NCBI GenBank assembly: GCA_964525635.1 | Contig: CAZGJX010000048.1 | Span: forward strand, 1-28,531 | Direction of reading: 5' to 3' | From: an uncultured archaeon | GTDB taxonomy: Archaea; Asgardarchaeota; Lokiarchaeia; Sigyniarchaeales; SOKP01 | Length of the DNA: 28,531 nucleotides | Shown: positions 3,342-28,376 of the stretch, one piece after another | How the letters are laid out: each line of letters starts with the position of its first letter | How positions within the stretch are numbered: position 1 is the stretch's first letter | The notes under the pieces: model-generated | The model's database searches: none | What the model was told of the DNA's origin: nothing | Seen by the model: the letters and a program-made list of their open reading frames with translations, nothing else | Position numbers and translations under genes: made by a program

Positions 3342-4172
3342 TTATATTATCTGACCACAATAATTTCCACCAAAAGGTCTTTTAGAAATTGGTTTTATTA
3401 CTTTAAATGGTTTTTTTCCTATTAACTCATAGGGAATATTAAAAATCTCACAGAATTCTTTTAAATATGATTCCACTTGTTTTAAATCCTCCTCACATGG
3501 TTCAAAAAGCTTAGCTCCAACTCCTAATTTATCCTCTAAATCCTCTTCAGTTCTTAAAAAGATTTTCCCTCTATGTATCCCTGTACCCAATTCATTTCCA
3601 CATATGGAACTTTCATTTTCAATAATATTACCATCAGGAAGGAATTTCAGACCAAGAATTATAATAAGACCTCCAGCCATGTATTCTCCTAAGAAATCTC
3701 TAGCTATCCCCCCAACAATTATCACCGGATGTTTTCTTTCATATTCTTTAATATGGATTCCAACTCTATATCCAACATCTTTTTTTATATAAATTTTTCC
3801 ACCTCTAGCGGATAATCCAATGACATCTCCTCCATCTCCATGAATTATAATAGTTCCATCATTCATTGTATTTCCAGCTTGATCTTCACAACTTCCATTC
3901 ACGGTTATTTTAGGACCATCCATAAAAATGCCTAAATCATTACCAGGTACACCATTTATTTCAAATTCTAGATCTCCTTGAAGTGAAGCACCAATGAATC
4001 TCTGACCACAAACATCGTTTAAGATAATTTTTTTGTATCCTGAATTTACAGCTTCATGGATTTGTTCATTTAATGTTTTATATTCAATTGGTTCTCCATT
4101 AGGAGCGCTATTTATATTAATTATCTTATTATTTTGAATAGTTTTTCCCTTTTGTATTGTATTTTCAACCAT
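3342..4172 (-). CDS. gltB3: Glutamate synthase large-subunit domain 3 (GXGXG beta-helix), archaeal split type
   Basis: GQRFIG, GVPGNDLGIFMDG, GNTMNDG, GYRVGIH, DFLGEYMAGG, GTGIHRG repeats; 3 bp downstream of gltB2. Confidence 0.92.
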   Translation of the reverse strand: MVENTIQKGKTIQNNKIININSAPNGEPIEYKTLNEQIHEAVNSGYKKIILNDVCGQRFIGASLQGDLEFEINGVPGNDLGIFMDGPKITVNGSCEDQAGNTMNDGTIIIHGDGGDVIGLSARGGKIYIKKDVGYRVGIHIKEYERKHPVIIVGGIARDFLGEYMAGGLIIILGLKFLPDGNIIENESSICGNELGTGIHRGKIFLRTEEDLEDKLGVGAKLFEPCEEDLKQVESYLKEFCEIFNIPYELIGKKPFKVIKPISKRPFGGNYCGQII

Positions 4173-4175
4173 TTT

Positions 4176-5696: not shown

Positions 5697-5697
5697 T

Positions 5698-6891: not shown

Positions 6892-8237
6892 GTTTGACTT
6901 TCCTCTTTAATTTTTTTTAATAATTTTAATAAATCATCAAGTTGCGGTTTATTTGAATCAAGACCAACCCTTTTTCGAGCTGATTTTGAAAACATTGCAA
7001 CAGTTCCCATTTTTCTAAATGATTCAAATTCGCGTTCAAATCCTTTTACAATAAATCCTCTTTCTTTTGCGAGATTACGAAGAATAGTAAATATTTCTAC
7101 TAATCCTATTTTAGATGGACATAATTCATAACAAACATAGCAGTCTAAACACATCCAAATGCTTGGATCTTTTATAATCTGTTCAATTTTTCCATCTAAA
7201 ATATCACCCACTATTTTATTTGGATCAAAACTAGTAATTTTTGCAACAGGACAATCATTATTGCATGCTCCACATGCTTTACATTTTTTTAAAAACTCTA
7301 TATCAAAATAATCTTTAATCTCATCATTTCTTCTATGGATAGAATCTATTTTTTTAAAAATGATATCAACTGGAGTCCTGTGAAACTTTTTAATAATATC
7401 TTTTATTTCAATTCCCAAAGCTATACATAACAATTCAGAATAATATAATACAGGAATATCATAATTATAATCAATTTTCTTTAATTCTTGTTGAAGGTGA
7501 TCAAATTGAATAAAACATTGTGGGCACCCTACCACAATGCAATCTATTCTATATTCTTTCATTGCTTCCAATTTATTTTGAATCATCTCCAAAGCAGAAT
7601 CGGGATTTCCTGCTCTTTCTAGACTTCCTCCACAACAATCCATTTTTCTATCATATTCTATACTTTTAGCTCCTAAATCTTCAATTAAAGAATCAAATAT
7701 ATGGGGCTCCATAGGATCATCCATTTGAATCTTATTACTCGGACGAAGGAAATGACATCCATAATGAACAGCTACCCTCAATCCATTTAAAGGATATTGT
7801 ATATTATCTTTTATTGTATGTTTTCCTAATTTATGAAAAAATTCAACTAAATGAAATACATCAATTTTACCAGAGACATTTAAATCAATATCTCCAAGAT
7901 ATTTATTCATTTCATCACGAAAATTGGGATTTGCTTTTATTTCACTTCTAATACCTTTTAAGGTCTCAAAACAACCATTACATGGAGTTAGAATACTTTC
8001 TTCTTCTTTCTCTGCTAATGCTAGGTTTCTTGATGCAGTTATTGAATAAATAAGCTCATTTGAATTTTTTATACCATTTGGTTCAGGACAACATGAAAAA
8101 TGAGGATTAGGATCTGAAATATTAATTCCAAAAAATTCTAATATTTTTCTAATTGAAACTTCAATAAAAGGGAGCCTATAACTAATAACACATCCAGGAA
8201 ATAACGTTACTTTTTGTTGAATTATATTTAACACCAA
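6888..8237 (-). CDS. hdrBC: Heterodisulfide reductase HdrB::HdrC fusion protein
   Basis: Two CCG domains (FPGC...SCCPEP...RNL...TPCNGC; HYGCHFLRP...DCCGG...GCPQC...QFD) followed by HdrC-type CKACGACNNDCP and IWMCLDCYVCYELCP. The stop overlaps the gltB1 start (ATGA, 6888-6891). TTG or GTG start uncertain. Confidence 0.92.
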   Translation of the reverse strand: MVLNIIQQKVTLFPGCVISYRLPFIEVSIRKILEFFGINISDPNPHFSCCPEPNGIKNSNELIYSITASRNLALAEKEEESILTPCNGCFETLKGIRSEIKANPNFRDEMNKYLGDIDLNVSGKIDVFHLVEFFHKLGKHTIKDNIQYPLNGLRVAVHYGCHFLRPSNKIQMDDPMEPHIFDSLIEDLGAKSIEYDRKMDCCGGSLERAGNPDSALEMIQNKLEAMKEYRIDCIVVGCPQCFIQFDHLQQELKKIDYNYDIPVLYYSELLCIALGIEIKDIIKKFHRTPVDIIFKKIDSIHRRNDEIKDYFDIEFLKKCKACGACNNDCPVAKITSFDPNKIVGDILDGKIEQIIKDPSIWMCLDCYVCYELCPSKIGLVEIFTILRNLAKERGFIVKGFEREFESFRKMGTVAMFSKSARKRVGLDSNKPQLDDLLKLLKKIKEESQT

Positions 8238-8546: not shown

Positions 8547-8563
8547 AATATACCCCATATATT
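8547..8563. promoter_or_regulatory. Palindromic operator candidate AATATA-N5-TATATT (copy 1)
   Basis: AATATA CCCCA TATATT in the divergent hdrBC / FMN-enzyme promoter region; the same motif occurs at 13464 and 23562. Confidence 0.5.
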
Positions 8564-8724: not shown

Positions 8725-10374
8725 ATGACAAAATTTTCAATGGTAACTCACAGATCTTCAATGATAGGTACAAGAACTCGAGTAGAAGATTCATGTGAAT
8801 CGGGTTTATGTCCAATATGTACATATGATTGTCCTGTATTTTGTGAGGTTAGTAAAAGTGCCCTTAGAGGTCGTGAAGTACTTTATCCTATGAGAGAATA
8901 CTTTGGGAATTCTACAGCAGGGACTCCAAAAGATTTTGGTTTTTCTTATGGAGATTTTCAAATACAATTTGAGGTTAGAGGAGCAAAAGGCCTTGATAAA
9001 GTTGATGAAGATACTGTAATCTTTCCAAACGTAGATATTTCAACAATGTGGGGAAATATACCACAAAAAGTTCCACTTGTAATCGCTGGTCTTGGTAGTA
9101 CATATGTAGCTAAAAGAAACTGGGATGGATTAGCTATGGGTGCTGCACTTGCAGGTGCTAGTATAACTGTCGGTGAAAATGTAGTTGGAATGGATTCAAA
9201 TGCAAAATTTAATTCAAGTGAAAAATATCCAAAAGTTATTGATACTGAGGATATGAAATATAGAGTAGAAGCATACAGGGAATTTTGGGATGGTACCCAC
9301 GGGGATATTATTATTCAAAAAAATGTTGAAGATACTCGATTAGGTGTTTTTGATTATGTTTTATCTAAATTAGATTGTACTTCCTTGGAGATTAAATTTG
9401 GTCAAGGAGCAAAAGCAATTGGGGGAGAAGTGAGACTTAGTACTTTAGAGAGAGCTCAATTATTACAAAGTAGAGGATATTTAGTTATACCTGATCCTTC
9501 AAATCCGTCTGTAATAGAAGAATGGAATGCCGGACTAATTCCAGATTTTGAGAGACATAGTCGTGTAGGTTTATCATCAACAGAAGAAGTTTTAGAAGAA
9601 ATTGACCAATTAAGATCTGCTGGAGCTAAGAATTTATTTATAAAAACTGGAGCTTATCGACCTGCTGCGACTGCTTGGATTATTAGATTAGCTGTAGAGG
9701 GTAAGGTAGATGGTTTAACATTGGATGGGGCTGGTGGGGGTACTGGAATGAGTCCTGTAAGTATGATGAATGAAGGATCAATACCCACTACTTATTTACA
9801 AGCTTTGACAGTAGGATGTTTAGATATGATAAAGAAAAAAACTCCCAATGCAAAAATCCCAACAGTAGCAATTGCTGGTGGGCTATCTAATGAGACTCAA
9901 ATATTTAAATCATTAGCAATGGGTGCTCCATATGTTACTTGTATCGCAATGGCTCGTGCTCCAATAACAGCTGCTATGAAAGCAAAAAATGTTGGTAAAT
10001 GGATTAATGAAAAATCAATGTCTCGAGGAATGCTTAGTTCATTAGGTTTTCAAAAAGATAAAGATCCAGAAACTCTCACTTTAGCAGAAGCCTTTGTAGA
10101 ATATGATCAATTAAATAGAAAATTCAGTGATAAAGTGATCCCTCCTGCTGCTTTAGGTGTATATACTTATTTTATGAGTAAACTTGGAACTGGATTAAAA
10201 CAACTACTCGCAGGTGTTAGGAAATTTAAATTAAATCTTTTAACCCGAGATGATATTGCTTGTATTTCACAACGATCTATTGACGTATGTAATCATTGGG
10301 ATTTAGGTATAAAATCTCAAGAAGATTTAGACTTAGAGTTAGTAAAGAAAGAAATATATTCTGGAAATTACTAA
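8725..10374 (+). CDS. FMN-binding glutamate synthase family protein, non-canonical type (N-terminal Cys cluster, no amidotransferase)
   Basis: SGLCPICTYDCPVFCEV, RGREVLYP, GLGST, VGENV, NVEDTRLGV, EIKFGQGAKAIGGEV, FERHSRVG, KTGAYRP, DGAGGGTGMSP; clear paralog of 26775..28355. Confidence 0.88.
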   Translation: MTKFSMVTHRSSMIGTRTRVEDSCESGLCPICTYDCPVFCEVSKSALRGREVLYPMREYFGNSTAGTPKDFGFSYGDFQIQFEVRGAKGLDKVDEDTVIFPNVDISTMWGNIPQKVPLVIAGLGSTYVAKRNWDGLAMGAALAGASITVGENVVGMDSNAKFNSSEKYPKVIDTEDMKYRVEAYREFWDGTHGDIIIQKNVEDTRLGVFDYVLSKLDCTSLEIKFGQGAKAIGGEVRLSTLERAQLLQSRGYLVIPDPSNPSVIEEWNAGLIPDFERHSRVGLSSTEEVLEEIDQLRSAGAKNLFIKTGAYRPAATAWIIRLAVEGKVDGLTLDGAGGGTGMSPVSMMNEGSIPTTYLQALTVGCLDMIKKKTPNAKIPTVAIAGGLSNETQIFKSLAMGAPYVTCIAMARAPITAAMKAKNVGKWINEKSMSRGMLSSLGFQKDKDPETLTLAEAFVEYDQLNRKFSDKVIPPAALGVYTYFMSKLGTGLKQLLAGVRKFKLNLLTRDDIACISQRSIDVCNHWDLGIKSQEDLDLELVKKEIYSGNY

Positions 10375-10415: not shown

Positions 10416-10516
10416 AAAACTTCTATAAAACAAACTTATATTCATAAATCTTTAAATAAGAGAAAAACGAAGATTAATATCATAACCAATTTATTTTATA
10501 AAATCACGTGATTTAT

Positions 10517-11725
10517 ATGAAAAAAAAAACACCAGTTTTACTATTGGTATTAGTTTTATTTTCAACCAGTACATTTTCATTAATGCCAATTAATACAGGA
10601 TCTGCATGTGGAAACTGTGATTTCGAATTTGGAGTTTCTTGGTGGGAAGAAAGTGGTTCACAACAATATCTAAGAGTTATTGCTACAGATCATTACCAAT
10701 TAGGCTTACAAATGGGTCAAAAACTTATAGTACAACTTTTAACCTTTGATACTATTTTAAAGGGTATAGCTGATATGAGTGGTATTTCTATTGATGAAGT
10801 AACTTATCTCATGAACTTCTATGATGCTTCGATTCCTGATGAATATAAGTCTTTTATTCAAGGTGTCTCAGATGCCACGGGACTTACTTATATTGAAGTA
10901 ATGTTTCAAGTTACATATATGGATGTCTATTATGGAATTTTACTCCCTATGATGGTTCAAGCAGCAACACAAACCCCCGCAGAACAAATAGCAGGATGTT
11001 CAGCTTTAGGCTCCAATCAAGTGATTGGACAAACCTTCGATTTATGGGGTGTTATGCCACCTACTCTTGCTTTTGTAAAATATACCTTATTAGGTCGACA
11101 CCCATCCACTGCTTTTGGACTTTGGCAAGGCGCTTTTTGCTATCCTATTGGTAAAAATCATTATGATGTCATGATCGTTACAAATCTTCTTCAGACTATA
11201 CTTCTTGGTGATTTCGGTACTCCTACATCAATAAAATCGATGATGGCTTTTGAAACTACAAGAACAGCAGAGGAATTCCTAGATATTATGCTTTCTAGCT
11301 TTCCTGCAGGTTATAATTATATTATTACTGATAGGAGAGGTAATGGTGTCGCTGTTCATACTATTCCAGTAAGTCCATATTTACCTGAAAATGTTGATAT
11401 TCAAGAAATTGATTCATTCGCAGTAAGAACTAATACTTATTTACGACCTGATTTCTTTGCTTTCTTAATTGATCCAACTTATTCTTTCGCTCGACAAGTT
11501 AAAGCTGAGGAATTAGCTACTGCTGAATATAATGACGATGGAAAGCTTTCTACAGGTGAAATAATTGATATTTTACAATATAACGATGGTACTGACGCTA
11601 CTATAAATAGACCATATGTTTCTGATTTTGAACCAGCTACCATGGCATATATTTCTATGGATAAATATCATATTAAATTTGGAATTGGCTTAGTTAGTGA
11701 AGATTACGGAGTTACATGGATGTAA
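10517..11725 (+). CDS. Secreted C45-family (acyl-CoA:6-APA acyltransferase / NAAA-like) Ntn hydrolase
   Basis: Signal peptide MKKKTPVLLLVLVLFSTSTFS (ATG 10517 preferred over GTG 10508); YQLGLQMG alpha-chain motif; GCSALG autocleavage Cys followed by GQTFD; GYNYIITD; RTNTY; S-x2-R motif (SFAR). Confidence 0.75.
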   Translation: MKKKTPVLLLVLVLFSTSTFSLMPINTGSACGNCDFEFGVSWWEESGSQQYLRVIATDHYQLGLQMGQKLIVQLLTFDTILKGIADMSGISIDEVTYLMNFYDASIPDEYKSFIQGVSDATGLTYIEVMFQVTYMDVYYGILLPMMVQAATQTPAEQIAGCSALGSNQVIGQTFDLWGVMPPTLAFVKYTLLGRHPSTAFGLWQGAFCYPIGKNHYDVMIVTNLLQTILLGDFGTPTSIKSMMAFETTRTAEEFLDIMLSSFPAGYNYIITDRRGNGVAVHTIPVSPYLPENVDIQEIDSFAVRTNTYLRPDFFAFLIDPTYSFARQVKAEELATAEYNDDGKLSTGEIIDILQYNDGTDATINRPYVSDFEPATMAYISMDKYHIKFGIGLVSEDYGVTWM

Positions 11726-13461: not shown

Positions 13462-13482
13462 TCAATATATCTGATATATTGA
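13462..13482. promoter_or_regulatory. Perfect 10-1-10 palindrome containing AATATA-N5-TATATT (copy 2)
   Basis: TCAATATATC-T-GATATATTGA, about 70 bp upstream of the nuoE start, in the divergent guaA/nuoE region. Confidence 0.6.
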
Positions 13483-13549: not shown

Positions 13550-14050
13550 TTGGCTCAAGATATTGCTTATAAATTGACAAGTAAAGATAAAAGTAGTATT
13601 TTAGACGTTTTAAATCATTATAACAGTGATAAAACTAATCTAATTTCAATTTTACAGGAAGTACAAAATTTATTTGGATTCTTGTCCCGTAATGTTATTT
13701 ATTTTCTTTCAAGAAAGCTGAAAATGTCTCCTGCTGAAATTTATGGAGTTGCTACTTTTTATACACAATTTAAATTTAAAAAAATTGGTAAATATTTAAT
13801 TGTATGCTGTGATGGGACCGCTTGCCACGTAAAAGGATCTACATTAATACTCAATTTTATAGAGGGATTCTTAGAAATTAAACCTGGAGAAACAACAAAA
13901 GATAAATTATATACTTTGGAATCAGTAGCATGTCTTGGATGTTGTGCTATTTCTCCCGTGTGTATAATAAATGGAAAAACATACGGAAATTTAACGACTA
14001 ATAAAATTAAGAGAATCCTAACGAAATTGGAAAAAAAAAGTAAGGTATGA
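13550..14050 (+). CDS. nuoE: NuoE/HydC-like [2Fe-2S] subunit (BfuC type)
   Basis: LISILQEVQ, YGVATFYTQF, CDGTACHVKG, CLGCCAISP; TTG start with GAAGTGA upstream. Confidence 0.92.
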   Translation: MAQDIAYKLTSKDKSSILDVLNHYNSDKTNLISILQEVQNLFGFLSRNVIYFLSRKLKMSPAEIYGVATFYTQFKFKKIGKYLIVCCDGTACHVKGSTLILNFIEGFLEIKPGETTKDKLYTLESVACLGCCAISPVCIINGKTYGNLTTNKIKRILTKLEKKSKV

Positions 14051-14057
14051 ATCAAAA

Positions 14058-15878
14058 ATGGAACTCAATTATCAAAAAAGAACTGTTTTAGTTTGCCGAG
14101 GTTCTGGTTGTAATTCTATGAATGCAGGGAGTATTTATACTTTATTAAATGAACTTATCCAAAAGAAAAATCTAACGGATTTTATTGATGTTAAATTAAC
14201 TGGTTGTCACGGGTTTTGCCAAGTGGGACCTACATTAATAATTCAACCAGATGATATATTATATATTCATTTAAATGTTAATAAAATAGAAGAAATTATT
14301 GATAATCATTTAATAAATAACAATATTGTTGAAAAATATCTTTACAAGGATCCAGAAAGTGGTGAATACATTAAAGACATCAACAATATTAGATTTTATA
14401 AAGAACAATATCCCATTATTACAGAGAAATGTGGAAAAATAAATCCAGAAGATATTAATGAATATATTACAAAGGGAGGATATGAATCATTTAAAAAAGC
14501 AATAAAAGAATTTAATCCTTTAGATGTCATTGAGGAAGTTAGAAGATCTGGACTGAGGGGTCGAGGTGGAGCTGGATTTTTAACTGGTCAAAAATGGAAA
14601 TTCTGTTATCAAGCACCTGGAAATCCTAAATATTTGATTTGTAATGCAGATGAGGGCGATCCTGGTGCTTTTATGGATAGGACAATATTAGAAAGTGATC
14701 CTCATAGTGTCATTGAAGGAATGCTTATTGGAGCATATGCAATAGGTGCATCTCAAGGATATGCGTATATCAGAGCAGAATATCCTCTCGCTATAAAAAG
14801 ATTTGAAATTGCTTTACATCAAGCAGAAGAAGCAGGTCTTCTTGGAAAGAATATTCTTAATACTAAGTTTAATTTCGATATAAAATTAAAAAAAGGAGCA
14901 GGGGCTTTTGTTTGTGGTGAGGAAACGGCATTAATGGCTTCAATTATGGGTAAAAGAGGTATGCCAAAACCAAAACCTCCTTATCCGGCAACTTCTGGAT
15001 TATGGAAAAAACCAACTAATATCAATAATGTAAAAACTTATGCAACAATTCCGAAAATTATTGAAAAAGGTGCAGAATGGTTCAGATCAATTGGAACTAA
15101 AGATGCTCCTGGAACAATTGTTTTAGCTTTGACAGGGAAAATTAACAATTCAGGATTAGTAGAATTACCATTAGGGTCATCTATTAGAAAACTAATATAT
15201 GATATTGGAGGGGGTATTCCAAATAATAAAAAATTTAAAGCAGTTCAAACAGGGGGACCTTCAGGGGGTTGCATTCCTGAAAAATTTTTAGATACTCCCT
15301 TAGATTATCAACATTTAACCGAACTGGGATCAATCATGGGTTCTGGAGGTTTTATTGTATTAGATGAAGATAGTTGTATGGTAGAACTAGCTCGATATTT
15401 TATTGAATTTACTCAAAATGAATCATGTGGTAAATGCACTCCTTGTAGAATTGGTACAAAAAGAATGTTAGATATATTAACTAAAATTACCAATGGAAAA
15501 GGTACTTTAGAGGATTTAAATGATTTGGAAAAAATAGCAAACATAGTTAAAAATACTAGTCTCTGTGGTTTGGGTCAAACGGCTCCAAATCCTGTTTTAA
15601 CAACTATAAAATATTTCAGAAAAGAGTATGATGCTCATATTTTAAATAAGAGTTGTCCAGCTTTAGTTTGCGAGAATTTAATCGAATATCATATAAATCA
15701 AGAATTATGTACTGGTTGTGGTTTGTGTAAAATAAATTGTGCCTCTAAAGCAATTGAAGGAGAACAGAAAAAACCTCATATTATTTCCCAGGAATTATGC
15801 ATTAAATGTGGTGTTTGTTTCAGTACATGTTCCTATAATGCTATATATAAAAAAACAAACGAGATTAAGAATGAGTGA
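14058..15878 (+). CDS. nuoF: NuoF/HydB-like FMN/NAD-binding subunit with electron-bifurcating (BfuB) architecture
   Basis: N-terminal thioredoxin-like [2Fe-2S] (CRGSGC...GCHGFC), SGLRGRGGAGF, NADEGDPGAFMDR, GAGAFVCGEETAL, ESCGKCTPCR...SLCGLG, DSCMV...HILNKSCPALVC, and two C-terminal [4Fe-4S] motifs. Confidence 0.95.
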   Translation: MELNYQKRTVLVCRGSGCNSMNAGSIYTLLNELIQKKNLTDFIDVKLTGCHGFCQVGPTLIIQPDDILYIHLNVNKIEEIIDNHLINNNIVEKYLYKDPESGEYIKDINNIRFYKEQYPIITEKCGKINPEDINEYITKGGYESFKKAIKEFNPLDVIEEVRRSGLRGRGGAGFLTGQKWKFCYQAPGNPKYLICNADEGDPGAFMDRTILESDPHSVIEGMLIGAYAIGASQGYAYIRAEYPLAIKRFEIALHQAEEAGLLGKNILNTKFNFDIKLKKGAGAFVCGEETALMASIMGKRGMPKPKPPYPATSGLWKKPTNINNVKTYATIPKIIEKGAEWFRSIGTKDAPGTIVLALTGKINNSGLVELPLGSSIRKLIYDIGGGIPNNKKFKAVQTGGPSGGCIPEKFLDTPLDYQHLTELGSIMGSGGFIVLDEDSCMVELARYFIEFTQNESCGKCTPCRIGTKRMLDILTKITNGKGTLEDLNDLEKIANIVKNTSLCGLGQTAPNPVLTTIKYFRKEYDAHILNKSCPALVCENLIEYHINQELCTGCGLCKINCASKAIEGEQKKPHIISQELCIKCGVCFSTCSYNAIYKKTNEIKNE

Positions 15879-18800
15879 TAATAATTTAAAAAAAGGTAAA
15901 ATATTCATAGATAATAAAGAAATAGATTTTATAGAAGGAGAAACTATATTAGAAGCAGCTAATAAGGCTGAAATCTATATACCCACTCTATGTTATATTA
16001 AAGGATTAGAACCCTATGGAGGGTGTCGTCTGTGTATAGTACAAATCGAAGGAATGAAGGGATATCCTCCTGCTTGTACGACCCCTGCTCAAGAAGGTAT
16101 GAAAATAAAAAATAATGATGATGAAATTTTAGATTTTAGAAAAGAGATATTTGAACTGTTGCTTAGTGAACATCCATATTCATGTCTAATTTGTTCAAAT
16201 AAAGAAAATTGTGAAAAAATCCGGGATAATGTTGATAAATTTGGGAGAATATTTGGATGTTTTACATGTGCTAGTAAAGATTCATGTGAACTCAGGAAAA
16301 TTGCAGAATATTTAGGTATTGAAGAGATTCCTTATGAATTAGAATATCATAATTATCCTCTCAAGAGAGATGATCCTTTTTTTGAAAAAGATTATAATTT
16401 ATGTATCCTATGTGGTAAATGCGTTAGAATATGTAATGATTTAAGAGGAGTTGGTGCTATAAATTTCATAAATCGAGGGCATAATACTCAAATTTCAACT
16501 GAATTTGATTTACTAAATGTTAATACAGATTGCCAATTTTGTGGTTCTTGTGTTGATATTTGTCCAACTGGAGCATTAAGTTCAAAAAATACAAAATGGG
16601 ATATAGGAAATACAGAAGCTAAGTCATCTGTATGTGGTTTTTGTAGCGTTGGATGTGGATTTGATTATTACTCCAGGCAAGGAGAATTATTTGAATCAAT
16701 ACCAAATAATGAAAATATAATAAATAAAGGTCATGGATGTGTTATTGGAAGGTTCTGTCCTCCTCAATTTAATAATGGAAGAGATAGACTTAAATATCCT
16801 TCAATAAAAGAAAATGGAGAATTAATTCCATCTGATTGGGAGAATATTTATTCTAAAATAAAAGAGAATTTAGAAAAATACGATCCTAAAGAAATTGCCT
16901 TTCTGGTATCACCTAATTTATCTAATGAATCTGCTTATTTATTAAATAAATTTGCTAATAGTGTTATTAAAACAGAGAATATTGCAATTATTTCTAATAA
17001 TAATTCTATTGATATATATTATAACTTATTAAAAAATAATCTAAATAAAGATTACTTATGTAGATCTATTCAAGATATTGAAAAAGCAGAATTATTAATA
17101 TTAATCAATACTAATATTCAGAAATCTCATCCTGTATTGTTTAATCATTTATTTAAAGCAAGAAAAAATGGATCCAAAATTATATCTCTTAATTTAAATA
17201 ATATCAAATCATCAACAATAACAAAGAGAATTTTAGACTATGAAATAAACTTCTCAAAAAAAGAACTTATTCTATTTTTATTAGAGTTATCAAAAAGATT
17301 ATCTGAAGGTATTAATGAATTTAAATTGGCGAATTTTGATTATAAATCGTTTTATAATTATATAAAAGATTTTAAATACAATGAAAAAAATCATAAGGAG
17401 AATGGATTAATTGATGATTTTATTAGTACTATAAAAAAATCAGAACAATCTAAAAGTATAATTCTAGTAGACTTAGACAGAAATTTATCGGATAATTATA
17501 TTGAGGATTTAATAGGAACTCTATTTAATTTATTAATTCTTTTAGATAATAAAATTGATCTAATTCCATTATGGCATTATGGAAATAAAGAAGGTGTATT
17601 TCAAAATATTTCATATAATATCAAACCGAAATCTATCAAAGATATTATAAATAATATAAAAAATAATCAAATAAAATTACTTTACCTTACTGAAAGATTT
17701 GAAAATCCTGAGATATTGAATAATATTGAATTTATCATATTACAAGATATTTATTCATCTAATAATTATGATTTAGCAGATATTATTTTACCTACTTGTA
17801 CATATTTAGAGGATTCTGGAACTTTTTTAAATGCTGAACTAAAAAGCCAAAATTTTCTTAAAATTGCTGATAGTAAAGGATATTCTAAACCTGATTGGCA
17901 AATTATAAGTGAATTAGGAAAAACCTTTGGAAATAATTATGTAAGAGATTTTTCATTTGATAATTCAAAAGATATCTATAAAGAATTGATGTTGGAGAAT
18001 CTCTATTTTAATGATGATTTAAATAGAGAAACTAAAAAGAATCTGAAATTTCATTTTCCCGATCTACAGAAGATTTATTTTAATGAAGATTTAGATTCAT
18101 TCGGTCTGAGATCTTTTGTTTATAGAGGTGAACCTATTTATAATCAAGTAGATGATTTAAGGGAGCTAATTAATTTTAATGAGTCTCTAAAAGATGATTC
18201 AGCTGATGAAATTAAAAAGCAAGAACAAATAAAAACTCAGTTTAAAGTATTATCTAATAAAGAAATAGTACCAAATACATTTGAGCTTATTGTTGAAGCT
18301 CCCTTAATAGCTAAGAAAGCAAAACCAGGAAACTTCGTCATTATAATGAAAAACCAAGAAAGTGAGAGATTACCAATGACTCTTTCAGATTGGAATATCG
18401 ATCAGGGATTAATAAAAATATATTATCAAGAAAAGGGGTTCTCTACAAGAGAATTAACTTCTCTTAAAAAAAATGATTATATTTTTAGTATTGTTGGTCC
18501 TTTGGGTAAAGAGTATCCAATCAAACATTATGGTACTGTATTATTAGGTGGGGGTTGCTATGGCAATGCTGCAATTTACCCTATAGGAAAAGCGTTAAAA
18601 GAAGCAGGTAATAAAATAATCATTATTTTAGAAGGAAAAAATAAGGATTTATTCTATTTGATAAACGAAATTGAAGAAATTTCAGATGAAATTATTTATT
18701 GTACTTCAGATGGCTCAAAAGGATTAAAAGGGAAGATAGATATTGGAATAAATTATGCACTTAATAAAGAAAAGAAAATTGATAGATGTCATTTTATTGG

Positions 18801-19113
18801 TTGTAATTATATGATGATGGATGCTTCAGAAAAAACGAAGATCTCTGGAAATATCCCAACAACTGTTTCTTTAAGTACTATTATGATTGATGGTACTGGT
18901 ATGTGTGGAGGATGTAGACTTTCACTAATTGAAAATGAAAAAGAAATAACAAAATTTGCATGTGTTGATGGGCCAATATTTGATGGTCATTCTATAAATT
19001 GGAGCGAATTAATTCATAGACAATATCGATTTAACTTTGATGAAACACAAATATATCAAACACATAGTTGTAAGTTAAAAGCTTTTATAAAAGAGGGAGA
19101 GAAAAATGAGTGA
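15871..19113 (+). CDS. Fusion: NuoG/FdhA-like Fe-S wire + degenerate molybdopterin-fold domain + NfnA (SudB/FNR-like) domain
   Basis: The true start is probably ATG 15871 (MSDNN), overlapping the nuoF stop; the ORF track start at 15739 lies inside nuoF. Motifs: IPTLC...GGCRLC...PAC, HPYSCLIC, CILCGKCVRIC, CQFCGSCVDICP, CGFCSVGC...GC-x2-GRF, ADIILP...EDSGTFLN...KPDWQII. From about 18241 NfnA: APLIAKKAKPGNF, ERLPMT, GPLG, DGTGMCGGCR, FACVDGP. Confidence 0.9.
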   Translation: MSDNNLKKGKIFIDNKEIDFIEGETILEAANKAEIYIPTLCYIKGLEPYGGCRLCIVQIEGMKGYPPACTTPAQEGMKIKNNDDEILDFRKEIFELLLSEHPYSCLICSNKENCEKIRDNVDKFGRIFGCFTCASKDSCELRKIAEYLGIEEIPYELEYHNYPLKRDDPFFEKDYNLCILCGKCVRICNDLRGVGAINFINRGHNTQISTEFDLLNVNTDCQFCGSCVDICPTGALSSKNTKWDIGNTEAKSSVCGFCSVGCGFDYYSRQGELFESIPNNENIINKGHGCVIGRFCPPQFNNGRDRLKYPSIKENGELIPSDWENIYSKIKENLEKYDPKEIAFLVSPNLSNESAYLLNKFANSVIKTENIAIISNNNSIDIYYNLLKNNLNKDYLCRSIQDIEKAELLILINTNIQKSHPVLFNHLFKARKNGSKIISLNLNNIKSSTITKRILDYEINFSKKELILFLLELSKRLSEGINEFKLANFDYKSFYNYIKDFKYNEKNHKENGLIDDFISTIKKSEQSKSIILVDLDRNLSDNYIEDLIGTLFNLLILLDNKIDLIPLWHYGNKEGVFQNISYNIKPKSIKDIINNIKNNQIKLLYLTERFENPEILNNIEFIILQDIYSSNNYDLADIILPTCTYLEDSGTFLNAELKSQNFLKIADSKGYSKPDWQIISELGKTFGNNYVRDFSFDNSKDIYKELMLENLYFNDDLNRETKKNLKFHFPDLQKIYFNEDLDSFGLRSFVYRGEPIYNQVDDLRELINFNESLKDDSADEIKKQEQIKTQFKVLSNKEIVPNTFELIVEAPLIAKKAKPGNFVIIMKNQESERLPMTLSDWNIDQGLIKIYYQEKGFSTRELTSLKKNDYIFSIVGPLGKEYPIKHYGTVLLGGGCYGNAAIYPIGKALKEAGNKIIIILEGKNKDLFYLINEIEEISDEIIYCTSDGSKGLKGKIDIGINYALNKEKKIDRCHFIGCNYMMMDASEKTKISGNIPTTVSLSTIMIDGTGMCGGCRLSLIENEKEITKFACVDGPIFDGHSINWSELIHRQYRFNFDETQIYQTHSCKLKAFIKEGEKNE

Positions 19114-20524
19114 TACAAAGAAAAAGAAAAGGCGCATTGATCTTCCAAGAAATAAAATGCCTGAACAAAATCCAAATTTAAGAAATAAAAATTTCAAGGA
19201 AGTTAATTTAGGTTATACTAATGAGATGGCGAAAGCAGAAGCAGAAAGATGCTTACAGTGCGAAAAACCTTTATGTGTTGAGGGTTGTCCTGTTAATATC
19301 AACATACCTGGATTCATTAAATTTATCAAAGAAGGTAATTTAAAAGCTTCTATTGAATGTATAAAAGATTATAATATATTACCTGCTGTATGTGGAAGAG
19401 TATGTCCTCAGGAAGTACAATGTGAGGGAAAATGTATTCTAGGTAAAAGATTCGAACCTGTAGCTATAGGGCATCTGGAAAGATATGTTGCTGATTGGGA
19501 AAGAGCTAATAAAATAAATGCTTGTCCTGAATGTAAATCTCCAAATAATATTAAAATAGCAATTATAGGATCTGGTCCTGCAGGAATTACATGTGCCGCA
19601 GAACTTGCTAAAGAAGGTTATGATATAACAATTTATGAGGCCTTTCATAAAGGTGGTGGTGTCCTTGTATACGGTATTCCTGAATTTAGATTACCTAAGG
19701 AAATCGTAGCAACTGAAATCAATACTCTGAAATCACTTGGAGTAAAAATAGAATATAATATGATAATAGGTAAAATCTTGACTATTGATGATTTATTTAA
19801 TATGGGATATAAAGCAATATTTATTGGTATAGGAGCAGGAACTCCAATATTCTTGAATATCCCAGGCTCGAATTTAAAAGGTGTTATATCAGCAAATGAA
19901 TATTTAACAAGGATAAATTTAATGAAAGCATATGACTTTCCAAATTATAAAACTCCTGTATCTTTAGGAAAATATGTTACTGTCATAGGGGGGGGAAATG
20001 TAGCTATGGATGCTGCTAGATCTGCATTAAGACTTGGAGCAGAAAAAGTTATTATTGTATATAGGCGTGCATTAGAACAAATGCCTGCAAGGAAAGAGGA
20101 AATCCATCATGCACAGGAAGAAGGAATTGAATTTAAGCTTCTCACGAATCCTTTGCGATTTATTGGAAATATCTATGGTAATGTTACAGAAATGGAAGTT
20201 ATAAAAATGAAGCTTGGAGAACTAGATGCATCAGGTAGAGCTAGTCCTATCCCTATAGAGAACTCAGAATTTCGTATAAAGACAGATTTAATAATTAATG
20301 CGATTGGAAATAATTCTAATCCATTATTAACTTCTACCTATCCTATATTAGAATTAAATAAATGGGGTAATATTGTAGCTGATGAGGATGGGAGGACTAA
20401 TGTTGATAGCATTTATGCGGGAGGTGATATCGTTACTGGTACAGCTACCGTAATTTCAGCAATGGGTGCTGGGAGAAGAGCAGCAAAGGCAATAAATGAA
20501 TATTTAATTGGCTTAAATAACTAA
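19106..20524 (+). CDS. nfnB: NfnB / SudA / GltD-like NADP(H)-binding Fe-S flavoprotein
   Basis: NFKEVNLGY, RCLQCEKPLCVEGCPV, CGRVCPQEVQCE, IGHLERY, GSGPAG, YGIPEFRLPK, GGGNVAMDAAR, YRR, AGGDIVTG; directly follows the NfnA domain with an 8-nt overlap. Confidence 0.9.
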   Translation: MSDTKKKKRRIDLPRNKMPEQNPNLRNKNFKEVNLGYTNEMAKAEAERCLQCEKPLCVEGCPVNINIPGFIKFIKEGNLKASIECIKDYNILPAVCGRVCPQEVQCEGKCILGKRFEPVAIGHLERYVADWERANKINACPECKSPNNIKIAIIGSGPAGITCAAELAKEGYDITIYEAFHKGGGVLVYGIPEFRLPKEIVATEINTLKSLGVKIEYNMIIGKILTIDDLFNMGYKAIFIGIGAGTPIFLNIPGSNLKGVISANEYLTRINLMKAYDFPNYKTPVSLGKYVTVIGGGNVAMDAARSALRLGAEKVIIVYRRALEQMPARKEEIHHAQEEGIEFKLLTNPLRFIGNIYGNVTEMEVIKMKLGELDASGRASPIPIENSEFRIKTDLIINAIGNNSNPLLTSTYPILELNKWGNIVADEDGRTNVDSIYAGGDIVTGTATVISAMGAGRRAAKAINEYLIGLNN

Positions 20525-23561: not shown

Positions 23562-23578
23562 AATATATTGTATATATT
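23562..23578. promoter_or_regulatory. Palindromic operator candidate AATATA-N5-TATATT (copy 3)
   Basis: AATATA TTGTA TATATT in the divergent promoter between the PPDK_N gene and the second nuoE operon. Confidence 0.5.
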
Positions 23579-23746: not shown

Positions 23747-24211
23747 ATGACGATAGATGAAACTTTTATTGATAAAACTATAGAAAAAAATAATAGGTCT
23801 CTTATCTCTATTTTACAGGATATACAAGAAAGTTATAATTATTTACCTGAAGAGTCTCTTATTAAAGTTGCAGAAAAAATGCAAATTCCGCTGATAGATG
23901 TATATTCAGTAGTTACATTTTACCATTCATTCTGTCTTATTCCTAAAGGTGAGTATATTATTACTGTTTGTTTAGGAACTGCATGTTATATACGAGGTGG
24001 AAAAAAAATAGTTGATTTATTAACAAAAGAATTGGAAATAATACCAGGGGAGACTACAAAAGATAATAAATTCACACTTGAAACAGTTAATTGCCTTGGT
24101 TGTTGTGCTATTGGACCTATCGTAAAAATAAATAATGAATATCATGGAGAGATGACTCCAAATAAGACAAAGAAACTTATAAAGTCCTTGAAGAGGGAAA
24201 AAAATGACTAA
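23747..24211 (+). CDS. nuoE: NuoE/HydC-like [2Fe-2S] subunit (second copy)
   Basis: LISILQDIQ, YSVVTFYHSF, VCLGTAC, CLGCCAIGP. Confidence 0.92.
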   Translation: MTIDETFIDKTIEKNNRSLISILQDIQESYNYLPEESLIKVAEKMQIPLIDVYSVVTFYHSFCLIPKGEYIITVCLGTACYIRGGKKIVDLLTKELEIIPGETTKDNKFTLETVNCLGCCAIGPIVKINNEYHGEMTPNKTKKLIKSLKREKND

Positions 24212-26042
24212 ATTACTCTCAATAAATGAATTCGATAAAATATCTAAGAAGATTACAGAACGTCAGGATTTTAATAAACATATTATCTCTATATCTTCGG
24301 GTACATGTGGACATGCAAGTGGTTCCATTAAGGTTGCAGAAGCATTAAAACAAGCTGTTAAAGGATATGAAGACAAAATTAGTATAAAACTGACAGGATG
24401 CCATGGATACTGTGCGGCAGAACCTAATATAATAATCTTCCCCCAAAAAGTTTTTTATAAAAATTTAAAGCCAGAGGATGCACCAAATATAATACAATCT
24501 ATATTAAAAGGAGAGATAATTGAAAACTTAGTTATTAAAGAGAATGGAATCAATTATACCCATATTGATGAAATTCCTTTTTATAAATACCAAAAGAATA
24601 TTCTTATAGGAGATAATCCGCTTATAGATCCTAAAAATATCGAAGATTATATAGCAATTGGTGGATATAAAGCATTTTCTAAAGCTTTATGTATGCGACC
24701 TAATGAAATTATTGAAGAGATAAAGAAATCTGGATTGCGGGGTAGGGGAGGAGCAGGATTTTCAACAGGGATTAAATGGGAAGTAGCAAGTAAACAAAAA
24801 AGTGATACAAAATATATAATTTGTAATGCTGATGAAGGGGATCCTGGTGCTTATATGGATAGAAATCTGCTTGAAGGTAATCCACAATTAATTATTGAAG
24901 GTATGATAATCGGGGCTTATGCAATAGGTGCAAATAAGGGATGGATTTATGTTCGAGATGAATATCCCCTTGCTGTGAAGAATATCACAATAAATATTAA
25001 GCAAGCTAGGGAAATGGGCTTTCTTGGTAAAAATATCCTTGGTTCAAGTTTTGATTTTGATATACAAATTACTCGTGGTGCAGGTGCTTTTGTTTGTGGG
25101 GAAGAGACAGCTCTTATTCAATCTATAGAAGGTAAAATAGGTGATCCACGTCAGCGACCTCCTTATCCCGCTCAAATGGGCCTTTTTGGCAAACCTACAA
25201 ATATAAATAATGTAGAAACATGGGCTAATATTCCTAAAATAATTGATAAAGGTGCAGACTGGTATGCTAACATCGGTACCAAGACGAGTAAAGGTACAAA
25301 GATTTTCTCACTCGTTGGTAAAGTTAAAAATACCGGATTAGTTGAAGTACCTATGGGTATTACAATAAAAGATATTGTATATAATATTGGAGGTGGATCT
25401 CCAACTGATCGTAAAATTAAAGCTATACAAACAGGGGGTCCCTCTGGTGGATGTATTCCAGAAGATCTATTTAATTTACCTATCGATTATGAATCGCTTA
25501 AACAGGCTGGATCTATAATGGGATCGGGAGGAATGATTGTATTGGATGAAGATACTTGTATGGTTGATTTTGCAAGGTACTTTACAAATTTCTTACAAAA
25601 TGAATCATGTGGTAAATGCTCATCCTGTAGAGAGGGTATTCAGCGTATGTTTGAAATATTAACAGATATAACCGAAGGTAAAGCAAATGATACAAGTATT
25701 GAGCTACTTGAAGAGCTTGGTAGTGTAATAAAAGATACTTCTTTGTGCGCCCTTGGTCAAACTGCCCCAAATTCTGTACTCACTTCAATTAGATATTTTA
25801 GAAATGAATATATTGCTCATATAAAAGATAAGAAATGTTTCGCAGGAGTCTGTCGGGCATTAATAAGATATAAAATAGATAAAGAGATATGCACTGGTTG
25901 TGGTGTATGTAAAATAAATTGTCCTGAGGGAGCAATAGTAGGTGAATTGAAACAGCCACACCTTATTCTTCAAGATAAATGTATTAAATGTGGAATTTGT
26001 CATGATAATTGCAATTTTAACGCAATTAATTTGGATGTATAA
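24204..26042 (+). CDS. nuoF: NuoF/HydB-like FMN/NAD-binding subunit with BfuB architecture (second copy)
   Basis: GCHGYC, SGLRGRGGAGF, NADEGDPGAYMDR, GAGAFVCGEETAL, ESCGKCSSCR...SLCALG, DTCMV...HIKDKKCFAGVC, CTGCGVCKINCP, CIKCGICHDNC. Confidence 0.95.
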   Translation: MTKLLSINEFDKISKKITERQDFNKHIISISSGTCGHASGSIKVAEALKQAVKGYEDKISIKLTGCHGYCAAEPNIIIFPQKVFYKNLKPEDAPNIIQSILKGEIIENLVIKENGINYTHIDEIPFYKYQKNILIGDNPLIDPKNIEDYIAIGGYKAFSKALCMRPNEIIEEIKKSGLRGRGGAGFSTGIKWEVASKQKSDTKYIICNADEGDPGAYMDRNLLEGNPQLIIEGMIIGAYAIGANKGWIYVRDEYPLAVKNITINIKQAREMGFLGKNILGSSFDFDIQITRGAGAFVCGEETALIQSIEGKIGDPRQRPPYPAQMGLFGKPTNINNVETWANIPKIIDKGADWYANIGTKTSKGTKIFSLVGKVKNTGLVEVPMGITIKDIVYNIGGGSPTDRKIKAIQTGGPSGGCIPEDLFNLPIDYESLKQAGSIMGSGGMIVLDEDTCMVDFARYFTNFLQNESCGKCSSCREGIQRMFEILTDITEGKANDTSIELLEELGSVIKDTSLCALGQTAPNSVLTSIRYFRNEYIAHIKDKKCFAGVCRALIRYKIDKEICTGCGVCKINCPEGAIVGELKQPHLILQDKCIKCGICHDNCNFNAINLDV

Positions 26043-26056
26043 TTTGAGGGATATGA

Positions 26057-26755
26057 ATGCCAAAAATAAAAATTGATGGAATTGAGTTTGATTGTTCAGA
26101 AAATTCAACAATACTTGATGTCGCTAAAATATTAGGAATAGATATACCAACTCTCTGCTATCACGAGGGCCTTTCAAGATGGGGTGGCTGTCGTTTATGT
26201 ATTGTTGAAATAGGAAGAGATGAAAATACTAAACTAGTTTCCTCGTGTACATATCCTGTTCAAGAAGGTCTTATTGTTCGAACTGCAAGTAAAAGGGTTA
26301 TTAATGCAAGAAAAATGATACTTGAACTTTTAATTGCACAAAATCCAACTTCCAAGGTATTACAAGATCTTGCATCAAAAATAGGTTTAAAAGAGGTCAG
26401 ATTCAAACCAAAATGGGAAACTTGTATTTACTGTGGTTTGTGTGTAAGGATATGTAAAGAACAGATGATGGCAAATGCTATTGGATTTGTTAATAGAGGA
26501 AATAAGTTAAAAATAACTACCCCCTTTGATAAAAATTCGGAGGATTGTCGAAGATGTGGTGCGTGCATGTATATATGCCCAGCATGTACAATAAGATGTG
26601 ATGGCCCCAATCCAGAAAGCGTGTTATGTAATGGCTGTTACAATGCACTCCAACCTACATGTTTGGAAGTTTATGATAATTTTTCATGTTGGATGGGATT
26701 AAAAGGTGAATGTGGAACATGTGTAGATATATCAAAGAATCAAAAAAATAAATGA
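26057..26755 (+). CDS. Short NuoG/HoxU-like Fe-S subunit with Cys-rich C-terminal tail
   Basis: IPTLC...GGCRLC...SSC [2Fe-2S]; CIYCGLCVRIC and CRRCGACMYICP; no H-x3-C-x2-C motif; no catalytic domain; GAGGGA upstream. Confidence 0.88.
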   Translation: MPKIKIDGIEFDCSENSTILDVAKILGIDIPTLCYHEGLSRWGGCRLCIVEIGRDENTKLVSSCTYPVQEGLIVRTASKRVINARKMILELLIAQNPTSKVLQDLASKIGLKEVRFKPKWETCIYCGLCVRICKEQMMANAIGFVNRGNKLKITTPFDKNSEDCRRCGACMYICPACTIRCDGPNPESVLCNGCYNALQPTCLEVYDNFSCWMGLKGECGTCVDISKNQKNK

Positions 26756-26774
26756 ATAAAAGGAGATATGAAAA

Positions 26775-28355
26775 ATGGTAAACTTTAAAATAAATGCTTC
26801 AGCTGCAACTCTGTCAAAGAATAGAACTGAGGATTCAGTTGTGCCTGAAAGTGGAATGTGTGCTACTTGTATAGATGGTTGTATTGGTATGTGTGAAGTT
26901 GGAAAATCTGCATATAGAGGTTCAGAAGTACTATATCCAAAACCATTTGGTATGATAACAACTGCAGGTGTAAAAAACTATCATATAAACTTCTCTGATT
27001 TTACAATACAAGGTACATGTATAGGAGCATATGGTATTGATGCCGATTCTGATACCGCTTTGTTCACGAATGTGAATTTAGAACAAAAAATAGGTCATGA
27101 TAAAAAAATAAGGGTAAAACTTCCTATTATTCTTCCAGGACTTGGTTCGACATCTGTAGCGAAAAATAATTGGGAAGGGCTTGCTATTGGAGCAGCACTT
27201 TCAGGAATAATTGTTACAGTTGGTGAAAATGTATGTGGTATGGATCCAAATTCAAAAATACAAAATGGAAAGATTGTATATTCAGAAGATCTTAAAAATC
27301 GAATTAATCTCTATAAAGAATGGCAACAAGATGGTTATGGCGGTATTGTTGTTCAAGCAAATGTAGAGGATACAAAACTTGGCGTACATGAATATGCAAT
27401 AGATAAATTAGGAGTTGAAATAGTAGAACTCAAATGGGGGCAAGGAGCTAAAGATATTGGTGGAGAAGTAAAATTAAAAACTTTACAGCATGCCCAAAGA
27501 CTTAAAGATAGGGGATATATTGTTCTGCCAGATCCATATGATCCAACTGTTATAAATTCATTTGAAAACCATGTTTTTAATGAATTTGAGCGCCATTCAA
27601 GGGTAGGTATGGTAAATGAGGAGACATTCTATAAACGAGTAGAAGAATTAAGATCTTTAGGTGCGAAATATATTTTTTTAAAAACAGGAGCATATAGACC
27701 TAGAGATTTAGCTCTTGCAGTAAAATGTGCATCTGAAGCGAAGATTGATTTGTTAACAGTAGATGCAGCAGGAGGTGGAACAGGAATGAGTCCATGGAGG
27801 ATGATGAACGAATGGGGTGTACCCCGTTTTGAGCTTTGGTCATTTCTTTATCAATATATTGATAAATTATCGAAGAAAGGGAAATATGTACCTGATATTG
27901 CAATTGCCAGTGGTATTTCTATGGAAGATCAGATAATTAAAGGTTTAGCATTAGGTGCCCCCTATTTTAAAATGATAGGTATGGCTAGAGCACCTCTTGC
28001 AGCAGCAATGGTGGGTAAAACAATAGGTAAAAGTATAGATAGTGGTGAATTACCTGTATATATTTCCCGTTTTGGAAGAACAAAAGAAGAAATTTTTATA
28101 ACAACTCCTGAACTTCAACATAAATTTGGGGCTAAATTCGACTCGATACCTACAGGTGCAATTGGTTTATATACTTATATAACTAGACTTAAGCAAGGAC
28201 TTCAACAATTGATGTGCGGAGCAAGAAAATTTGCATTAAAATATATTAGAAGAGATGATATTGCTTCATTAACACATGAAGCAGAGGATATAACTGGAAT
28301 CCCATTTATAATGGATTCAGATAAAGAAGAAGCTGAAAAACTTCTTGATTTCTAA
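26775..28355 (+). CDS. FMN-binding glutamate synthase family protein, non-canonical type (second copy)
   Basis: SGMCATCIDGCIGMCEV, RGSEVLYP, GLGST, VGENV, NVEDTKLGV, ELKWGQGAKDIGGEV, FERHSRVG, KTGAYRP, DAAGGGTGMSP; AAGGAGA RBS; 19 bp after the short nuoG. Confidence 0.9.
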   Translation: MVNFKINASAATLSKNRTEDSVVPESGMCATCIDGCIGMCEVGKSAYRGSEVLYPKPFGMITTAGVKNYHINFSDFTIQGTCIGAYGIDADSDTALFTNVNLEQKIGHDKKIRVKLPIILPGLGSTSVAKNNWEGLAIGAALSGIIVTVGENVCGMDPNSKIQNGKIVYSEDLKNRINLYKEWQQDGYGGIVVQANVEDTKLGVHEYAIDKLGVEIVELKWGQGAKDIGGEVKLKTLQHAQRLKDRGYIVLPDPYDPTVINSFENHVFNEFERHSRVGMVNEETFYKRVEELRSLGAKYIFLKTGAYRPRDLALAVKCASEAKIDLLTVDAAGGGTGMSPWRMMNEWGVPRFELWSFLYQYIDKLSKKGKYVPDIAIASGISMEDQIIKGLALGAPYFKMIGMARAPLAAAMVGKTIGKSIDSGELPVYISRFGRTKEEIFITTPELQHKFGAKFDSIPTGAIGLYTYITRLKQGLQQLMCGARKFALKYIRRDDIASLTHEAEDITGIPFIMDSDKEEAEKLLDF

Positions 28356-28365
28356 TCTATAATTA

Positions 28366-28376
28366 TTCTTTTTTTT
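28366..28376 (+). terminator. Oligo-T terminator tract
   Basis: TTCTTTTTTTT about 10 bp after the stop at 28355. Confidence 0.45.

Follow-up and report, generated by a model that had tools for sequence, protein, structure and literature searches.

A Bfu-type operon with a glutamate synthase-like FMN subunit in an Asgard archaeon: a candidate complex for glutamate formation from NADH and ferredoxin

Introduction

In the characterized Bfu enzymes, four electrons from a third substrate pass through the flavin mononucleotide (FMN) of the BfuB subunit and are split between NAD and ferredoxin (PMC9304861). The list of these enzymes compiled by Schut et al. (2022) contains no glutamate-linked member (the word "glutamate" does not occur in it). 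Here we describe a four-gene operon on a 28,531-bp contig of an uncultured archaeon (GenBank GCA_964525635.1, CAZGJX010000048.1; the stretch analyzed, called the window below, is the entire contig). It combines a Bfu electron module with an FMN barrel protein, X, that resembles the synthase domain of glutamate synthase.

WorABCSL of Acetomicrobium mobile (PDB 9MQX; PMC12318220, PMC9304861) shares with this locus its BfuBC motifs, a short BfuA with clusters A1, A2 and A4, a Cys-rich tail and a separate catalytic subunit. It uses a tungstopterin subunit (WorL) and a WorS wire where the present locus has a single FMN barrel, and its tail carries four Cys plus a helix where ours has eight Cys; in addition, the third substrate here would lie higher in potential than the pooled donors. 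NfnABC/StnABC (PDB 9N5U, 8OH5; PMC12018979) join a Bfu core to a GltD/NfnL-like NADP(H) domain, as do long variants of the operon, but there the domain sits on BfuA as the third-substrate site, whereas in the long variants it sits on BfuB and replaces the ferredoxin-docking clusters. The FMN domain of glutamate synthase GltB (PF01645; 1EA0, 1OFD; PMC8097209) and the archaeal split GltB2 have the same barrel, motifs and feeding by ferredoxin, GltD or F420 as X, which lacks the amidotransferase, central and GXGXG domains in cis and the [3Fe-4S] motif and has a new N-terminal four-Cys motif. FGltS pairs an FrhB-like F420 module with a glutamate synthase-type subunit, much as in the FrhB-X fusion described below, but glutamine dependence has been proposed for it, and it lacks a Bfu core. 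The NAD(P)-dependent glutamate dehydrogenase (GDH) of the ELFV family, a frequent neighbor of X, would share its net chemistry; its fold is unrelated, and its hydride transfer is direct, with a driving force limited to one pyridine nucleotide.

Ammonium assimilation through glutamine synthetase (GS) and glutamate synthase costs ATP, and GDH has limited driving force. We infer complex formation, substrate and reaction direction for the new operon. BfuABC and X very probably form one complex, and 2-oxoglutarate/glutamate is probably the substrate couple of X. That NADH and ferredoxin jointly feed a strictly coupled amination in this complex is our tentative proposal, to which we give a little less than an even chance.

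Results

The operon

The host genome (4.45 Mb, 27% GC, completeness score 100%) has its nearest relatives among the Promethearchaeota. The operon consists of the following genes:

23747-24211, + strand: BfuC/NuoE-like gene, 154 aa; PF01257 (E 2.9e-49); [2Fe-2S] cluster C1
24204-26042, + strand: BfuB/NuoF-like gene, 612 aa; ferredoxin-port form
26057-26755, + strand: BfuA, Type 2, 232 aa; Fe-S domains only
26775-28355, + strand: X, FMN barrel protein, 526 aa; PF01645; putative catalytic subunit

An earlier note on this DNA had described four co-oriented genes with an 8-nt overlap and gaps of 14 and 19 bp, which agrees exactly with the open reading frame (ORF) coordinates. It had also claimed ribosome-binding sites for the last two genes, and GAGGG and AGGAG indeed lie upstream of their starts.

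BfuC and BfuB have the features of a bifurcating-type electron module

BfuC ligates C1 through C75, C80, C116 and C120. BfuB has an FMN/NAD site (A216-Y-M218, F296 and GGPSG 411-415) followed by cluster B1, the Cys3His site of B2 (C452/H539/C545/C550) and, through two CxxCxxCxxxC motifs, the C-terminal [4Fe-4S] clusters B3 and B4. The Bfu-type features that the earlier note had read from this protein (GDPGAYMDR, GEETAL, the Cys3His site and two [4Fe-4S] motifs) were all found. Its best PDB matches are bifurcating B subunits (NiFe-HydABCSL, NfnABC, HydABC and WorABCSL; 639–756 bits), and non-bifurcating NuoF/FdsB scored at most 399 bits in the same search. Losey et al. (PMC7311640) recognize bifurcating B subunits by an NADH site with Ala or Glu plus Met, an FMN site with Phe, and GGPSG. 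All four are present, and none of A216, M218, F296 and GGPSG varies among the aligned relatives (40/40). By these sequence features, the 612-aa protein is BfuB and not a respiratory NuoF. The operon has neither the short non-bifurcating NuoF nor the full NuoG of a complex I NuoEFG module, and no membrane nuo genes occur among the recurrent neighbors of X loci. At the N terminus of BfuB, a thioredoxin-like domain retains C35, C66 and C70 of the B5 site, with Ser at position 31 where 22 of the 40 relatives have Cys; an active Nfn-Bfu enzyme carries Zn at this site.

BfuA ends in a family-specific Cys tail

BfuA contains one [2Fe-2S] and two [4Fe-4S] clusters, with no A3 motif. The earlier note had seen a NuoG-like subunit without a catalytic domain, and the domain search likewise returned Fe-S domains only. 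An A3-type pattern occurs in just 1 of 57 BfuA sequences. The protein thus has the makeup of Bfu Type 2: A1, A2 and A4, no A3 or catalytic domain, and an extra catalytic subunit encoded in the cluster. By both sequence (E 3e-35) and fold, the best PDB match is WorA (9mqx_A). Beyond the clusters, the tail has eight further conserved, family-specific Cys (177, 181, 191, 194, 202, 211, 219 and 222). Because the WorA tail, a zinc finger plus a helix, docks the catalytic module (PMC12318220), the tail of BfuA may by analogy be a metal site and docking adaptor for X.

X resembles the synthase domain of GltB

Proteins of the X family are currently annotated merely as "FMN-binding glutamate synthase family protein". 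X matches PF01645 only (E 1.5e-12) and no NCBIfam model. Its AlphaFold model is an FMN (β/α)8 barrel (pLDDT 92) for which Foldseek ranks glutamate synthase 1ofd first, tied with 2-hydroxy-acid (lactate) oxidases. A phmmer search of the PDB returned designed TIM barrels only, and no glutamate synthase chain was among the 50 best VIA-align matches, which says nothing of those ranked lower. The fold by itself does not choose the chemistry of X; the motifs do favor GltB. X keeps the GltB-type GE, Q, ExKxxQGAK, β-5 Lys and GGTG motifs. Counted along the 1EA0 alignment, with profile alignments, E151, Q194, K220, Q223, K226, K303 and T336 of X correspond to E886, Q909, K931, Q934, K937, K999 and T1030 of GltB, and these seven residues are conserved in 90–98% of 112 X sequences. 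Ser859, Lys937, Arg957 and Thr1030 of 1EA0 are the 2-oxoglutarate ligands.

Resemblance to PF01070 2-hydroxy-acid oxidases is one of shared fold only (Z 26.9, rmsd 2.9, 294 residues aligned). Their catalytic HGGR loop, which follows barrel strand 6, occurs in 1/112 X sequences, the family having D-A/G-A-G-G-G-T-G at this place; without HGGR, we rejected a chemistry like that of lactate/glycolate oxidases.

Other features set X apart from GltB. The [3Fe-4S] motif C-x5-C-x4-C, present in the GltB2 encoded in the window, is found in 0/112 X sequences; an invariant N-terminal CxxCxxxCxxxC (C29/C32/C36/C40) probably supplies an Fe-S cluster in its place. Neither a class II amidotransferase nor a GXGXG domain is present in the X chain or in any of 80 loci (see below). 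The invariant motifs FERHSR and LKxRGY are specific to X and have no GltB counterpart. X would work like the GltB synthase domain, yet it stands outside the glutamate synthase family as defined. Structure prediction for an X + BfuA complex (with FMN and three [4Fe-4S]) scored 0.03 (mark 0.32), which gives no verdict and is evidence for neither side.

BfuA and X are tightly linked in many phyla

A scan of species-representative genomes yielded at least 598 relatives, and the gene set recurs in hundreds of anaerobic species of more than ten phyla plus the Asgard archaea; the best 80 loci were taken as the sample. BfuC, BfuB, BfuA and X keep this order in these 80 wherever the DNA extends far enough, so that conservation of the four-gene operon across taxa, which the earlier note had proposed to check, goes far beyond chance. 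All 79 Bfu-linked X genes with upstream DNA are preceded by this BfuA. Conversely, in a metagenome scan with the BfuA alignment alone, X comes next in 73/73 loci with downstream DNA (70 adjacent, 3 with a short gene between), and this BfuA type was never found without X. This tight mutual linkage supports the suggestion of the earlier note that the FMN protein is the catalytic partner of the Bfu module. The short gene encodes 130–140 aa (L136, L148 and L158, about 3680-4190) and its product resembles the four-helix-bundle (intervening-sequence) proteins. One locus (L023:439-7928) has tandem Bfu sets, with long-form and short-form BfuB, upstream of a single X.

In a tree of 107 X proteins, the Bfu-linked sequences lie on one side of a branch (SH-aLRT 92). 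The window's operon X groups with one other Promethearchaeota sequence amid bacterial ones (support 100), and 150 genomes sampled from the same phylum gave no match above 56% identity. Because X nests among bacterial sequences and closer matches are absent from those 150 genomes, acquisition by transfer from bacteria is plausible, as far as an unrooted tree can indicate. A stand-alone X of cultured source, 37% identical, lies on a plasmid of Peptoclostridium acidaminophilum behind a small FMN-binding protein (L103:8980-10500).

The donor port is exchanged repeatedly

In 37 of 69 BfuB proteins the chain continues directly beyond the B2 hinge with a GltD/NfnL-like domain instead of the B3/B4 domain; the ferredoxin type occurs in 32 loci. 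The inserted domain keeps its FAD (flavin adenine dinucleotide) motif and YRR in 36/36 cases checked. Long (GltD-fused) and short BfuB have switched at least nine times on the X tree, and the closest relative of the window copy, 84% identical in the core, has the long form whereas the window copy is short. A short-form operon also occurs in a metagenome-assembled genome of Dethiobacter alkaliphilus (L047). In the GltD-fused BfuB proteins (L001:4162-7257 and 36 other loci), the GltD/NfnL-like domain stands in for the ferredoxin-docking domain with its first two Cys moved to the C terminus (RCxRC). Elsewhere, a divergent X domain stands behind a dicluster and an F420-binding FrhB domain, beside GDH genes (L185:6001-8403, P0213; L085:6825-9230). 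These fusions are only ~30% identical to X and are a candidate F420-dependent form.

GltD-like modules pass electrons from NADPH to other subunits (PMC8097209); for the glutamate synthases of methanogens, an F420 module has been suggested (PMC3448663). Because X shares its three donor types (ferredoxin, GltD/NADP(H) and F420) with known or proposed glutamate synthases, they point to a reductive role.

X loci are enriched in genes of glutamate metabolism

GDH-family genes occur in 16/80 loci, in many phyla: 21 genes against 0.53 expected, an excess of ~40-fold. The expectation comes from 82 matches counted over 165 Mb in 50 of these genomes; related genomes are not independent. Such genes likewise flank X in 7/19 Asgard loci of the stand-alone kind and in the two FrhB-X fusions examined, and all 46 GDH-like ORFs checked carry the glutamate-type signature GPxKGG. 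GS genes are found in 8/80 loci and sigma-54 activator-like genes in 18. The split glutamate synthase genes gltB1, B2 and B3 are absent from all 80 loci. Among 50 host genomes, 13 have canonical GltB and 11 its amidotransferase, which was not found in the remaining 39 (metagenome-assembled genomes, possibly incomplete).

Proposed reaction and energetics

We propose that the four proteins constitute one soluble Type 2 Bfu complex catalyzing NADH + 2 Fd(red) + 2 (2-oxoglutarate + NH4+) -> NAD+ + 2 Fd(ox) + 2 glutamate (Fd, ferredoxin), with NADPH in place of ferredoxin in the GltD-fused variants. As judged from known Bfu structures, NADH would enter at the BfuB FMN and ferredoxin electrons at B3/B4 and C1, and the exit would run via B1, A1, A2 and A4. 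The Cys tail of BfuA would then hand the electrons to X at its N-terminal cluster and FMN, and X would reduce 2-iminoglutarate in the manner of the GltB synthase site. Such a complex could act as an ATP-free ammonium trap or electron sink, opposite in direction to the neighboring GDHs.

We take the standard potential of the 2-oxoglutarate + NH4+/glutamate couple to be −132 mV, from the GDH equilibrium constant. With 1 mM 2-oxoglutarate and 50 mM glutamate assumed, the computed potential is −212 mV at 0.1 M ammonium and −330 mV at 10 μM. With donor potentials of −280 mV (NADH), −380 mV (NADPH) and −500 mV (ferredoxin) (PMC9304861), a pooled NADH and ferredoxin donor lies near −390 mV, and joint-donor amination yields −69 to −23 kJ per two glutamates. 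Equilibrium is reached at ~0.1 μM ammonium with joint donors, 0.5 mM with NADH alone and 0.2 μM with NADPH alone. Compared with an NADPH-GDH, the complex would therefore win little; its real advantage would be the direct use of NADH and ferredoxin. Glutamate oxidation with canonical Bfu wiring was rejected (+12 to +100 kJ per two glutamates), and with that wiring amination is therefore the sole feasible direction for glutamate.

Other features of the window and genome

The operon belongs to an island that also holds the genes of a split glutamate synthase, an X that stands alone and a second Bfu operon, of the Nfn type; the earlier note mentions none of these, nor the eight further Cys of the BfuA tail. 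Further features are:

8725-10374, + strand: stand-alone X paralogue outside the operon, 45% identical, of a clade common in Asgard archaea
23562-23578, no strand: palindrome AATATA-N5-TATATT, weak candidate for a shared operator, 185 nt 5' of the first operon gene
28369-28376, + strand: run of eight T 3' of the last stop, possible archaeal terminator (weak)

The T-tract noted earlier at the operon end exists; its standing as a terminator is weak because such 8-T runs follow many long ORFs (276/2162) in this 27% GC genome. The palindrome has 4 matches in the window against 0.08 expected. Three of its 17 intergenic copies in the genome lie in the window (8547-8563, 13464-13480 and 23562-23578), one of them 178 nt 5' of the X paralogue, and the N5 spacer shows no genome-wide enrichment over other spacers. 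At locus L001, a copy lies 201 nt upstream of the GDH gene that heads its cluster. The region upstream of the operon contains no NrpR box (GGAA-N6-TTCC), and a sigma-70 promoter/terminator scan, a model ill-suited to an archaeon, gave nothing above shuffles.

Divergent from the operon is a gene for a PEP-synthase-like ATP-grasp protein (PF01326; 20710-23328, − strand), with homologues beside X in 5/80 loci and in one Asgard stand-alone locus; it is a possible regulator. The second Bfu operon (13550-20524, + strand) encodes BfuC, BfuB, a NuoG-like BfuA fused to an NfnS-like domain, and then NfnL, and may place two bifurcating modules in one complex. The genome has two BfuBC sets in total, both in the window. 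In the related Promethearchaeota L092 and L093, plain NfnS-like and NfnL genes occupy a similar place near guaA. The split gltB1, B2 and B3 genes (3342-8237, − strand) are led by an HdrB/HdrC-like fusion (two CCG domains and a dicluster domain); this operon lacks gltD. A 405-aa protein (10508-11725, + strand) has a signal peptide-like start, no Pfam match and two genomic paralogues (73% and 35%). Elsewhere in the genome, an FdhA-like molybdopterin protein of 683 aa has no redox partner gene nearby (G000:C33:1740-3791).

Discussion

The operon is real, widespread and apparently undescribed: in agreement with the earlier note, no Bfu/glutamate synthase enzyme of this kind was found in the literature searched, a coverage that mostly leaves out subscription papers. 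Several observations weigh against coupled amination of 2-oxoglutarate. The fold of X is equally close to lactate/glycolate oxidases, type 2 IPP isomerase and glutamate synthase, and its identity to GltB2 is only 22–29%. The counterpart of Arg957 cannot be placed (R246, R273 and R276 are invariant, none securely aligned), and that of Ser859, S125, may be one residue out of register. The 80 loci contain no Amt or GlnK gene. The neighboring GDHs are mostly of the archaeal GdhA/GdhB type, often catabolic, and so do not fix the direction. GS, GDH and a split GltB are already encoded in the host genome. An FMN site that works with free ammonium may have poor affinity; the energetics use assumed metabolite levels, and a thermodynamic edge need not be a kinetic one. 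The proposal is built on the gene set, cofactor motifs, folds, mutual linkage and glutamate-metabolism neighborhood.

Some of these points would suit the same complex and wiring acting on another substrate, such as a different 2-oxoacid/amino-acid couple, an alkylamine (as in an N-methylglutamate synthase-like enzyme) or an unknown metabolite of amino-acid catabolism. The low identity to GltB2, the Arg957 site, the X-only motifs FERHSR and LKxRGY and the tie among FMN barrels all fit, and genes for 2-oxoacid dehydrogenase E1 neighbor one close relative. We consider this unlikely, given that the link to glutamate-type GDH extends across Bfu-linked, stand-alone and F420-fused X, that X has GltB-type GQGAK and GGGTG loops and that HGGR is all but missing. 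If glutamate is made, NADH, ferredoxin or NADPH might each feed X singly: amination is strongly downhill, coupling saves no energy, the low-potential port has been exchanged repeatedly and stand-alone X exists without Bfu. Such uncoupled amination seems improbable to us, the bifurcation signature residues being invariant and Wor-Bfu being strictly coupled even with both branches exergonic (PMC9304861). We have still less faith in a partner encoded elsewhere, whether X borrows GltB1/GltB3 (3342-6891) as a glutamine-dependent synthase or BfuABC serves a hydrogenase or formate dehydrogenase, the latter being the refutation envisaged by the earlier note. The window does contain gltB1, B2 and B3, which may share the palindrome with the operon, and the genome encodes two NiFe hydrogenase large subunits and an orphan FdhA-like protein; we rejected a partner of the FeFe-hydrogenase kind, as none was found in this 100% complete genome. 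However, gltB1 and gltB3 have their own GltB2 and never accompany X in the sampled loci, the amidotransferase was not found in 39 of the 50 host genomes, which may be incomplete, and this BfuA type was accompanied by X in all 73 loci.

The earlier note had itself proposed a bifurcating glutamate oxidoreductase. Its substrate couple probably holds; the wiring, with NADH at mid-potential, is unsupported. In that scheme, 2 NADH + 2-oxoglutarate + NH4+ + 2 Fd(ox) <-> glutamate + 2 Fd(red) + 2 NAD+. The geometry does not forbid it, with the FMN of BfuB placed between the branches to B1 and C1 (as we read PMC12018979), and the forward reaction releases 11 kJ at standard concentrations (−11 kJ with NAD at −320 and ferredoxin at −450 mV) and is near equilibrium at 0.1 M ammonium. 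NADH is close to the midpoint only near standard concentrations, however; at the assumed cellular levels the glutamate couple falls to the −212 to −330 mV given above. NADH-driven amination with ferredoxin reduction then costs, per turnover, +4 to +27 kJ with the note's potentials and +29 to +52 kJ with cellular ones, and +4 to +58 kJ over the cellular conditions tried. The reverse, in which ferredoxin pulls glutamate oxidation, runs downhill at cellular levels, but it depends on this same wiring, for which there is no precedent, and would form NADH at the expense of reduced ferredoxin. Fermenters must dispose of NADH, which counts against this direction. No characterized Bfu enzyme has NADH and ferredoxin on opposite sides, and the authors who described the family predict them as joint donors for high-potential third substrates. 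Overall, we see a slim chance for this wiring. If true, it would be a new glutamate oxidoreductase and the first Bfu enzyme with NADH and ferredoxin opposed, NADP taking the place of ferredoxin in the GltD-fused form.

Should NADH and ferredoxin indeed drive coupled amination together, the complex would be a third, ATP-free route for ammonium in energy-limited anaerobes of more than ten phyla and in Asgard archaea, and its third substrate would belong to a class absent from the published Bfu list. The repeated swap between ferredoxin port and NADP(H) domain is a natural test of how the Bfu branches are coupled. Given that X also exists alone and fused to an F420-binding domain, a large and as yet unassigned enzyme family may lie behind the present generic annotation.

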